From contig CAYPAP010000003.1 in assembly GCA_964408775.1 (NCBI GenBank), positions 47,615 through 106,153 of the forward strand: a stretch of 58,539 nucleotides of DNA, written 5' to 3'. Position 1 is the first letter of the stretch. Every line of letters begins with the position of its first letter. The position numbers and the translations under genes were made by a program. Below, one piece after another: positions 27,548-29,357 of this stretch. This DNA comes from an uncultured Gammaproteobacteria bacterium (lineage in GTDB: Bacteria; Patescibacteriota; Patescibacteriia; Patescibacteriales; UBA12465). Under the pieces are notes generated by a model. It saw only the letters and a program-made list of their open reading frames with translations. It was not told where the DNA came from and ran no database searches.

Positions 27548-28078
27548 ATGTTAGGAGAAAAAACAAAAAAAAATTTAGAGGAAGCTTTTGCTGGAGAGTG
27601 TATGGCTCGAAGCAAATATGATTATTTTGCTAGTGCCTTTAAAAAAGCTGGTTATGTGCAGATTGCTAATATTTTTGAGGAAACTGCTCGTAATGAAAAA
27701 GAGCATGCTAAACTATGGGCCAAGGAATTGGGCTATATCCATGAAGATATTAAGGATAATTTAAAATCAGCTATTGAGGGAGAAAATTATGAACATAGTG
27801 ATATGTACCCCAGAATGGAAAAAGATGCTTTAGAGGAGGGGCACGAAGATATTGCTAAATTATTTCATGAAGTAGCCGAAGTTGAGGAGGCTCATGAAGC
27901 GCGGTATAAGAAGTTATTGGAGAATATTGAGAAGGGAATAGTGTTTAAGAGAGATGAGGTTAAGCGCTGGAAATGTAATAATTGTGGTTATATCCATGAG
28001 GGCGAAGGAGCTCCGGATGTTTGTCCGGCCTGTTCTCATCCTCAGGCTCATTTTGAGATTTTTATAGAGACTTATTAA
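27548..28078 (+). CDS. rbr: Rubrerythrin
   Basis: 176 aa. Ferritin-like ExxH pairs (EKEHAKLW, EEAHEARY) plus a C-terminal rubredoxin-like WKCNNCGYIHEG...CPACSHP. Confidence 0.9.
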   Translation: MLGEKTKKNLEEAFAGECMARSKYDYFASAFKKAGYVQIANIFEETARNEKEHAKLWAKELGYIHEDIKDNLKSAIEGENYEHSDMYPRMEKDALEEGHEDIAKLFHEVAEVEEAHEARYKKLLENIEKGIVFKRDEVKRWKCNNCGYIHEGEGAPDVCPACSHPQAHFEIFIETY

Positions 28079-28088
28079 TTTTAAAAAT

Positions 28089-28208
28089 ATGGCTAATAGA
28101 GTTGGAAAAATTTATGTTTGTGAGATTTGCGGGAATGAGGTTGAGTTTGTTAAGGACGGTGGTTCTCCAATTATTTGTTGTGGAGAGCCGATGAAGGAGA
28201 AAGAATAG
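28089..28208 (+). CDS. Desulforedoxin-like small iron-binding protein (39 aa, missing from the ORF track)
   Basis: My own translation is MANRVGKIYVCEICGNEVEFVKDGGSPIICCGEPMKEKE. The CxxC...CC spacing matches desulforedoxin / the Dfx N-terminal domain. It sits directly after rbr. Confidence 0.7.
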   Translation: MANRVGKIYVCEICGNEVEFVKDGGSPIICCGEPMKEKE

Positions 28209-28321
28209 TCTGATAGGCGGATATATTTAATATGAATTAAATATTTAAAGAGAATCGTTTTGGCGGTTCTTTTTATTTTAAATTTAAGATATTTTCATAT
28301 TGGTTTTGTTATAATTTAGAT

Positions 28322-28983
28322 ATGAAAAAAGAAATAAAAAAACAAGCCAAAATACTAAGAAAAAAAGGGCGTTCTTTTCGGGAGATTAGTGAGATTTGTG
28401 CTATCTCCAAAAGTACTGCTTCTTTGTGGTGTCGAAATGAAACTTTAAATAAAAAAGCGAGGGAGAGAATAAAAAACTTGGGCGATGTTGGTAGAGAGAA
28501 GGGAAAAGTAACCGCTAGAGAAAAGAGAGTGAAGGAGTTAGAATTAATTGATAAAAATTGTTCAGTTTTAAGAAATAAAAAATATAGCATCGATGATTAT
28601 AAATTATTTCTAGCTTTGCTTTATTGGGGTGAGGGTGGCAAAACCAAGAATCGTTTCAGATTTACTAATTCTGACTCTGAAATGATGAAATCATTTTTGT
28701 ATTTATTAAGAAAAGCTTTTATTATTAATGAAAAAAACTTTATGCTAGAATACATCTACATGAATATCATAATAAGGATGAAATGATAGATTTTTGGTCC
28801 GGTATTACTGGTATTGAAAAAAAACAATTTTCCATATATAATAAACCACATACTGGTGTTAATAAAAAATTTGGATACAAAGGTTGTATTACTGTTAGTT
28901 ACGGGGATAGCAAGGTTTTTAAAGAGGTTTTTATTATTATCGATCGGTTTATAAAATATATTAATAATGCGGGATTGGTGTAG
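28322..28983 (+). pseudogene. HTH plus LAGLIDADG-like protein gene split by a -1 frame change at an A7 tract (pseudogene, homopolymer error or programmed frameshift)
   Basis: ORFs 28322-28786 and 28783-28983 join into one ~220-aa protein if a -1 shift occurs at 28732-28738 (A_AAA_AAC in the 0 frame). LALLYWGEGGK resembles a LAGLIDADG motif. The N-terminal GRSFREISEICAISKSTASLW looks like an HTH. Confidence 0.6.
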
Positions 28984-29039
28984 TGGTAACATATTTGATT
29001 CCAAATCAAACGACGTGGGTTCGATTCCTACATCCCGTG
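28969..29039 (+). tRNA. tRNA-Trp (CCA)
   Basis: GCGGGAT acceptor (G1-U72 wobble), TTTGA-TTCCAAA-TCAAA anticodon arm, GGTTCGATTCC T-loop. The 5' 15 nt overlap the end of the LAGLIDADG-like ORF. Confidence 0.8.
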
Positions 29040-29114
29040 CTTGACAAAAATATAGCAATTATGCTATATTTTTTTATTGTCCTTTAATAATATTGTCTCA
29101 CAAAAATTTGAAAA

Positions 29115-29357
29115 ATGGAGGAGATTTATTTTGTATGCCTGAAATCAGACTCTGATTTCGAAAGACTTTTGAATGAAGTCAGAAAAAGGCAGAGGGTCCA
29201 ATTTTTTATTAATTCTTCGAATCATGAAGTTTTTCGATTAAAAATCGATGTATTCCTGGAAAGAGTTGCTATCGGGGAAAGATTCGAAATCGAAACAAGT
29301 CCTGTGCCCGGCGCGTACTTTATTTTAAGTCGTCACAAGGTGGACCTGGTTGTCTGA
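29115..29357 (+). CDS. Hypothetical small protein
   Basis: 80-aa ORF with locally higher GC. Followed by a terminator. No motif recognised. Confidence 0.45.
   Translation: MEEIYFVCLKSDSDFERLLNEVRKRQRVQFFINSSNHEVFRLKIDVFLERVAIGERFEIETSPVPGAYFILSRHKVDLVV

Follow-up and report, generated by a model that had tools for sequence, protein, structure and literature searches.

The window analysed here, a stretch of 58,539 nucleotides, contains two overlapping open reading frames (ORFs) that lie between a rubrerythrin/desulforedoxin unit and a tRNA-Trp gene (Table 1). In the ORF listing of the window these are a 154-aa ORF in frame 0 and a 66-aa ORF at 28783-28983, the frame of which is -1 relative to the first and opens at 28732, just past a TGA at 28729-28731. 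At the A run between them, frame 0 reads gaa (28730-28732), aaa and aac, and the letters A_AAA_AAC at 28732-28738 form a slippery heptamer in the X_XXY_YYZ register. A first-pass annotation, made from the sequence of the window, had drawn attention to this heptamer and to an overlap between the 3′ end of the second ORF and the tRNA gene. Both are present: the -1 frame is open from the first letter of the heptamer, and ARAGORN places the start of tRNA-Trp(cca) at 28969, so that the last five codons of the ORF (28969-28983) are the first 15 nt of the tRNA.

Table 1. Features of the split gene and its surroundings (window coordinates)
Feature	Position	Strand	Description
Terminator-like hairpin and T run	28246..28275	+	13-pair stem; closes the upstream rubrerythrin/desulforedoxin unit; upstream edge of the putative cassette
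Extended -10 element TGTTATAAT	28307..28315	+	6 nt before the ATG; predicted promoter of the gene itself
5′ piece	28322..28786	+	Frame 0, 154 aa; HTH (residues 1-42), long helix (44-79), LAGLIDADG-type helix LALLYWGEGGK with E104, first hairpin, second helix
5′ piece, tail			15 out-of-frame codons past the break, then TGA
A7 run	28731..28737	+	Break site; A8 in the closest intact homolog
3′ piece	28732..28983	+	-1 frame; residues ~138-220 of the family protein, remainder of the LAGLIDADG-fold domain; 88% identical to intact homolog P0083; TAG at 28981-28983
Sigma-70-type promoter TTGAAA-17-TATAAT	28814..28842	+	126 nt before the tRNA; codons GIEKKQFSIYNK; predicted promoter of tRNA-Trp
tRNA-Trp(CCA)	28969..29040	+	Sole tRNA-Trp gene in the assembly; first 15 nt encode AGLV and a stop

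Both pieces align end to end with single homologous proteins of 220 aa, in which the junction reads NEKKLYARIHLHEYHN. The two ORFs are thus parts of one protein of about 220 aa, as had been proposed at first pass. A protein search with the 5′ piece returned some 80 relatives, nearly all of them single ORFs of 214-221 aa in Patescibacteria assemblies; taxon labels in the titles of several metagenome-assembled genomes (MAGs; ‘uncultured Gammaproteobacteria’ and the like) are unreliable and were left unused. The closest intact homolog (protein P0083, locus L002 of genome G014) is 91% identical to the 5′ piece and 88% identical to the 3′ piece.

The family to which the protein belongs is very large. 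In a collection of 1.84 billion representatives, a 56-member profile matched 5808 clusters of 50% identity with E ≤ 1e-3, of which 3142 reached E ≤ 1e-10. The body of the protein lies outside all Pfam and NCBIfam families; the NCBIfam scan gave nothing meaningful, and when the 56 members were scanned against Pfam at E ≤ 0.1, LAGLIDADG_3 was absent from the 25 most-matched families. The LAGLIDADG character suggested from the motif was only partly borne out by these models: the window's 5′ piece matches HTH_23 (E 0.022) and, weakly, LAGLIDADG_3 (E 0.048), but the latter scores 14.4 bits against a cut-off of 22.5, is confined to this piece, and none of LAGLIDADG_1, 2 or 3 was found above its gathering score. 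Membership is instead assigned from the predicted fold.

AlphaFold models the protein with a pLDDT of 92.4 (92.6, with a pTM of 0.85, for residues 85-220) as a three-helix HTH (1-42), a long helix (44-79) and an alpha/beta domain, which matches the alpha-beta-beta-alpha-beta-beta-alpha core of the LAGLIDADG fold. When this domain was compared exhaustively with 48,161 chains using VIA, LAGLIDADG proteins took the top seven to eight places. The best match was I-DmoI (Z 7.7 and 7.4, rmsd 2.3-2.4 over 81 residues), with further matches to the TliVMA intein endonuclease, E-DreI, WhiA, I-Tsp061I, I-Vdi141I, I-MsoI, I-CeuI and I-CreI; Z scores below 8 are middling, and the case for the fold is that the top rows are all of one kind. 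The order of an HTH followed by a LAGLIDADG-like motif, read from the sequence at first pass, is thus upheld by the model and its structural matches rather than by a Pfam-level profile match. Foldseek, run on the PDB with either the full model or the isolated domain, returned nothing better than weak OmpA- or IspF-like rows (rmsd 6-8 Å), which were not used; a profile search of PDB sequences found HTH proteins only, at E > 0.1, the ESM Atlas held no usable match, and no relatives were found in 50,697 phage records.

The glutamate of the GEG in LALLYWGEGGK, E104, does not vary in either of two sets (56 and 32 sequences) and closes helix 90-104 of the model. Its place at the end of the motif helix would make it the acidic residue at the LAGLIDADG catalytic position, an assignment made from the motif and the model. 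Since there is a single LAGLIDADG-fold domain, the protein would be expected to work as a homodimer. Among intact copies dN/dS is 0.09-0.46, mostly 0.1-0.3, indicating purifying selection. The protein thus belongs to a very large and unannotated family of Patescibacteria, with an N-terminal HTH and one domain of predicted LAGLIDADG fold.

Loci were surveyed from relatives (26) and from a species-level genome collection (61); a metagenome scan added a single locus. tRNA-Trp(cca) follows every ortholog locus for which downstream sequence exists, and in unbroken copies the distance from ORF stop to tRNA start is -15 to +11 nt, the stop codon often being taken from the tRNA. Where copies carry premature stops, the tRNA is still at its usual position past the gene remnant. 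Paralogs with 27-33% identity are docked before other tRNA genes, namely Pro(tgg), Thr(tgt), Ile(tat), Gln(ttg) and Lys(ctt). On a rough estimate from the 38 tRNA genes of the 833-kb genome, about one gene in 1000 would adjoin a tRNA in this way by chance. The link drawn at first pass to tRNA genes as targets is borne out, family members sitting directly 5′ of them.

Several of these loci have peculiarities of their own. In three Falkowbacteria-type loci, the tRNA-Trp(CCA) that follows an intact family member has the T arm GTAGG-GGCGGCA-CCTAC, where GGTTCGATTCC is usual (L043:1977-2060, L044:2149-2220 and L046:2149-2220), and is missed by ARAGORN; it could be odd but functional, or a variant tied to the neighbouring nuclease gene. 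In two Moranbacteria loci (L061:543-869 and L062:474-866) the tRNA-Trp copy is preceded, at a distance of about 600 nt, by another and divergent member of the family. That of L062 ends about 45 nt before a tRNA-Tyr (start 912), which places two docked cassettes in one tRNA cluster. On a 1.7-Mb chromosome that bears the label Acidimicrobiia, a 27%-identical member is found 18 nt ahead of tRNA-Lys(ctt) (L089:1501-2145); if this label is right, the family extends beyond Patescibacteria.

In very many MAGs the contig ends at, or within about 100 nt past, tRNA-Trp, or inside the gene (for example L003, L004, L005, L006, L008, L009, L010, L012, L019, L024 and many of L034-L081), and within the genus at least two alternative sequences follow tRNA-Trp. 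Such endings point to a mixture of strains or to a variable stretch immediately past the tRNA. In the window a near-consensus promoter with a TG, TTGACA-18-TATATT, begins at the first base past tRNA-Trp (29041-29070) and faces an 80-aa ORF (29115-29357); the same sequence follows the tRNA in G014, G016 and G019.

On its upstream side the gene is set apart by the terminator-like hairpin, and equivalent hairpins precede it in homolog loci. The extended -10 element is part of a pattern, TTTGnTATAAT-N6-ATG, that recurs in most orthologs of several lineages. As this element is only 6 nt from the ATG, the mRNA would be leaderless or nearly so. Match to the consensus and conservation of the pattern point to a self-contained, leaderless transcription unit.

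A second predicted promoter lies within the coding sequence. With 11 of 12 matches, TTGAAA-17-TATAAT is the best sigma-70-type match between 28000 and 29400. In nine same-genus copies, synonymous codon diversity is at its lowest for the gene over this stretch (0.08-0.12, against a typical 0.2-0.35). A promoter-like motif is found 125-134 nt from the tRNA in the closer orthologs of other lineages, and 15-19 nt before it in several Microgenomates-type orthologs. As TATAAT arises automatically from conserved Tyr-Asn codons in an AT-rich genome, however, the motif is weak evidence outside the relics of the gene, and it is the relics that are decisive. The 36-nt promoter block is kept in all eight same-genus relics, with 4-7 substitutions; a search that allowed up to 8 substitutions located it nowhere else in the 833-kb genome. 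In the relics of G007 and G011 a 5′ deletion halts just upstream of the -35 element, and in those of G009, G006, G001, G019 and G012 an internal deletion has moved the block from 126 nt to 12-27 nt off the tRNA. Since the genome has no other tRNA-Trp gene, the persistence of the relics is accounted for by selection on the promoter of this one. From these patterns, the embedded promoter probably drives the essential tRNA-Trp.

Sites without the gene also have a promoter, TTGATA-17-TATAAT, 9-10 nt before the tRNA. That of G020 agrees with the embedded block at 26 of 36 positions, a cut-off at which the genome contains a second match; as this is borderline, homology between the two is not claimed.

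Within the genus the order of genes is constant: a perM-like gene, rubrerythrin (rbr), usually desulforedoxin (dsr), the gene and tRNA-Trp. rbr is upstream in all but one congener locus. The exception is G003 (L004:853-2209, minus strand), where rubrerythrin is replaced by two ORFs of 264 and 201 aa, which we take to resemble an AbiE-type toxin/antitoxin pair. The gene is thus a free-standing unit with a predicted promoter of its own, between rbr/dsr and tRNA-Trp, that is present in some relatives and absent from others. Among 20 congeners about nine have an intact copy, one a copy with an in-frame stop and a lost start, and seven only relics; two have empty sites and one lacks the region. The empty sites differ, with 53 nt from rbr to the tRNA in G020, and a terminator, a promoter and then the tRNA in G004. 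On a tree of rbr, genomes with intact, broken, relic and empty sites are intermixed: nearest to the window are the intact G014 and G019, a heavily deleted relic, and the empty-site G020 is one node out.

The gene tree within the genus roughly follows that of the neighbouring rbr, and no direct sign of transfer within the genus was found. In most pairs of genomes the gene shows less synonymous divergence than the adjacent rbr (dS 0.40 against 1.10 for L002 and the window, where the two genes span 27548-28983), which is a hint only, because rbr dS is saturated and composition differs. The lower value could reflect constraint at the DNA level, composition, or more recent shared ancestry through transfer. 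The interspersed states suggest a homing endonuclease gene that passes in cycles from function to degeneration to loss, although they also fit a dispensable host gene.

Taken together, the fold, the invariant acid, the docking and the patchy distribution lead us to infer, with slightly better than even confidence, that the family is a free-standing homing endonuclease cassette. Such a cassette would have its own leaderless promoter, and its protein would act as a homodimeric LAGLIDADG nuclease, steered by the HTH to a target at the 5′ border of a tRNA gene. As the cassette would part the tRNA from any promoter upstream, it is proposed to carry a replacement promoter inside its coding sequence, and this promoter block would be what selection keeps as copies decay. 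The overlap with the tRNA may add a further control, since RNase P cutting at the tRNA 5′ end would strip the stop codon from a read-through mRNA and so limit expression of the protein. A more tentative, and on balance doubtful, extension is that the tRNA-docked genes of the family are active homing cassettes, which target tRNA 5′ borders and bring a replacement tRNA promoter within their coding sequence, the host keeping the promoter after the gene has decayed. Were this true, the promoters of essential single-copy tRNAs in many Patescibacteria, perhaps at ‘empty’ sites too, would be leftovers of selfish elements.

The main rival holds that the family is a domesticated, LAGLIDADG-derived DNA-binding protein, comparable to WhiA, with a regulatory or protective role at the tRNA gene beside it, and that the window has simply lost a dispensable host gene. 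WhiA (DUF199; PDB 3hyi, 8dy9) has two degenerate LAGLIDADG domains and a C-terminal HTH, and lacks catalytic acids. It shares with the family the LAGLIDADG fold combined with an HTH, and this non-catalytic protein is among the top structural matches (Z 6.2-6.6). The purifying selection on intact copies would also suit a host protein, as would a gene tree that roughly tracks rbr and may reflect long vertical residence, and the tight physical, and probably transcriptional, coupling to the tRNA. Yet family members have one domain, preceded by the HTH, and keep a glutamate at the predicted catalytic position, an architecture other than that of WhiA. Moreover, intact, relic and empty sites are patchily distributed among close relatives, and each paralog is tied to a different tRNA, as expected of homing genes that are defined by their targets. 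We therefore regard domestication as unlikely and keep to the homing endonuclease reading.

It remains to account for the break in the window. A sequencing or assembly error, with an organism that truly has A8 and an intact gene of 220 aa, would explain why both halves are open, conserved and marked by past purifying selection, and why the sole lesion is one base in a homopolymer, in a genome that holds 763 A7 and 196 A8 runs. However, the split products recur in records of separate sources: the exact 154-aa product is recorded on two contigs (NCBI/ENA and JGI/IMG), as is the exact 66-aa product (NCBI/ENA and Logan). The assembly (six scaffolds, 33.5% GC) has N gaps of 100 and 110 on two scaffolds, and so reads as short-read data, in which consensus errors at runs of 7-8 nt would be uncommon. 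Decay of the gene is, in addition, common within the genus. An error is thus improbable, and the A7 is likely to be a real and recent mutation in the DNA. Relative to L002, at a dS of 0.40, dN/dS is 0.09 upstream and 0.17 downstream of the break; these low values on both sides indicate that the break is young relative to the divergence of the two genomes. A genome-wide screen for ORF pairs joined at A or T runs of at least 7 gave 11 candidates, and its filter missed the window's own gene; used without homology, such a screen cannot tell ordinary neighbouring genes from errors, and it was not taken as evidence.

The weakest of the alternatives, which we consider very improbable, is functional recoding, in which -1 ribosomal frameshifting on A_AAA_AAC, or transcriptional slippage on the A7 run, would yield the full-length protein, perhaps keeping nuclease dosage low. 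The downstream frame remains open and the heptamer is in register, but the register is no independent coincidence: once GAA AAA AAA C has lost an A it can only read GAA AAA AAC, and the old frame is by definition restored by a -1 slip. In the closest intact homolog this stretch is AAT GAA AAA AAA CTT, with A8 in one ORF, where the window has AAT GAA AAA AAC TTT. All 14 homolog genes read as nucleotides have a single frame at the break site, and in most of them the A run is interrupted (AAG AAA, AAT AAA or GAT AAA).

Other broken copies differ from the window in both the site and the kind of lesion. The frameshifted L085, L088 and L083 break near residues 70, 120 and 170, respectively, and L008, L012, L053, L054 and L061 are broken by in-frame stops. 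The 82 nt downstream of the heptamer do fold somewhat better than shuffled sequences (-16.9 kcal/mol, z -2.56), but into AU-rich hairpins, the first of which begins 2 nt past the heptamer, where stimulator structures are expected at 5-9 nt; inspection by eye showed no SD-like stimulator upstream. The window thus has, like the -1 sites of dnaX and IS elements, an X_XXY_YYZ heptamer in the 0 frame and a downstream frame at -1. Unlike them, it has no conserved two-frame layout, its hairpins are a doubtful candidate for a stimulator, and its A-site codon, AAC, is less shift-prone in bacteria. The candidate raised at first pass, programmed FRAMESHIFTING, was rejected on the single-frame homolog DNA and the differing sites of the other broken copies. 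What the evidence favours are the possibilities that had been listed beside it, a one-nucleotide homopolymer error or a pseudogene.

In this respect the window resembles the homopolymer indel pseudogenes of AT-rich reduced genomes, with a one-base change in a poly(A) run of a reduced genome of 33.5% GC. Indels are known to be compensated in some cases by frameshifting at a low level (PMC5009743), and some such pseudogenes, in Buchnera and Blochmannia, are leaky through transcriptional slippage (cited in PMC5009743). Low-level, unselected rescue may occur here, although rescue by slippage has been documented for runs of about 9 or more and the run in the window is 7.

Most likely, then, 28322-28983 is a recently inactivated copy, through loss of one A from an A8 run, of a member of a family docked 5′ of a tRNA gene, and it would represent the first step in the decay series of the genus. 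This removes a false candidate for recoding, and illustrates that contraction of a homopolymer can mimic a perfect slippery site. The window contributes a dated first step of decay, a decay series within one genus and an embedded, predicted promoter that outlives its gene. The series can be seen as a natural experiment, which suggests that a selfish gene, outlived by its internal promoter, has become entangled with the expression of an essential tRNA. Beyond the genus, the family comprises thousands of clusters for which Pfam and NCBIfam offer no model. If it does encode homing endonucleases, the biology of LAGLIDADG proteins in bacteria of the candidate phyla radiation (CPR) reaches from rRNA insertions to the borders of tRNA genes. 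Full-text literature searches on the family turned up no account of bacterial LAGLIDADG genes docked at tRNAs.

Known systems share some of these features, each in a different combination. With I-DmoI, I-CreI, I-MsoI and I-Tsp061I (PDB 2vs8, 1af5, 1m5x and 2dch) the family shares the predicted fold of residues 88-215 (Z 7.7-4.5). As in enzymes of the I-DmoI and I-CreI type, there is a G-E-G motif helix with an invariant acid, together with presence or absence at a fixed site and decay; like I-CreI, the protein has a single domain and would form a homodimer. Unlike these enzymes, members of the family have an N-terminal HTH and a long connecting helix, and lie not in an intron or intein but docked 5′ of tRNA genes, and here the nuclease is a predicted one.

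SegB of phage T4 is a free-standing homing endonuclease of the GIY-YIG type, encoded in the T4 tRNA gene cluster; a conserved tRNA motif forms part of the site that it recognises, and the enzyme drives its own inheritance along with that of the neighbouring tRNA genes (PMC2330249). Both are free-standing genes among tRNA genes, cleavage and homing being putative for the family described here. SegB, however, belongs to another nuclease superfamily and to a phage, and neither an overlap with a tRNA nor an embedded tRNA promoter has been described for it. LAGLIDADG endonucleases of the I-ShaI type, found in rRNA insertion sequences of CPR bacteria, are single-domain homodimers that cut at the insertion site (PMC11270868). 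They share with the family the same bacterial radiation and the single-domain LAGLIDADG form, but lie inside rRNA insertions and have no HTH; the term tRNA does not occur in that paper. The break in the window is itself ordinary, while the family is a new combination, of a LAGLIDADG fold, an HTH, a free-standing gene and docking at tRNA genes. Its closest analogues are SegB in logic, I-DmoI and I-CreI in fold, and the CPR rRNA-insertion endonucleases in host range.
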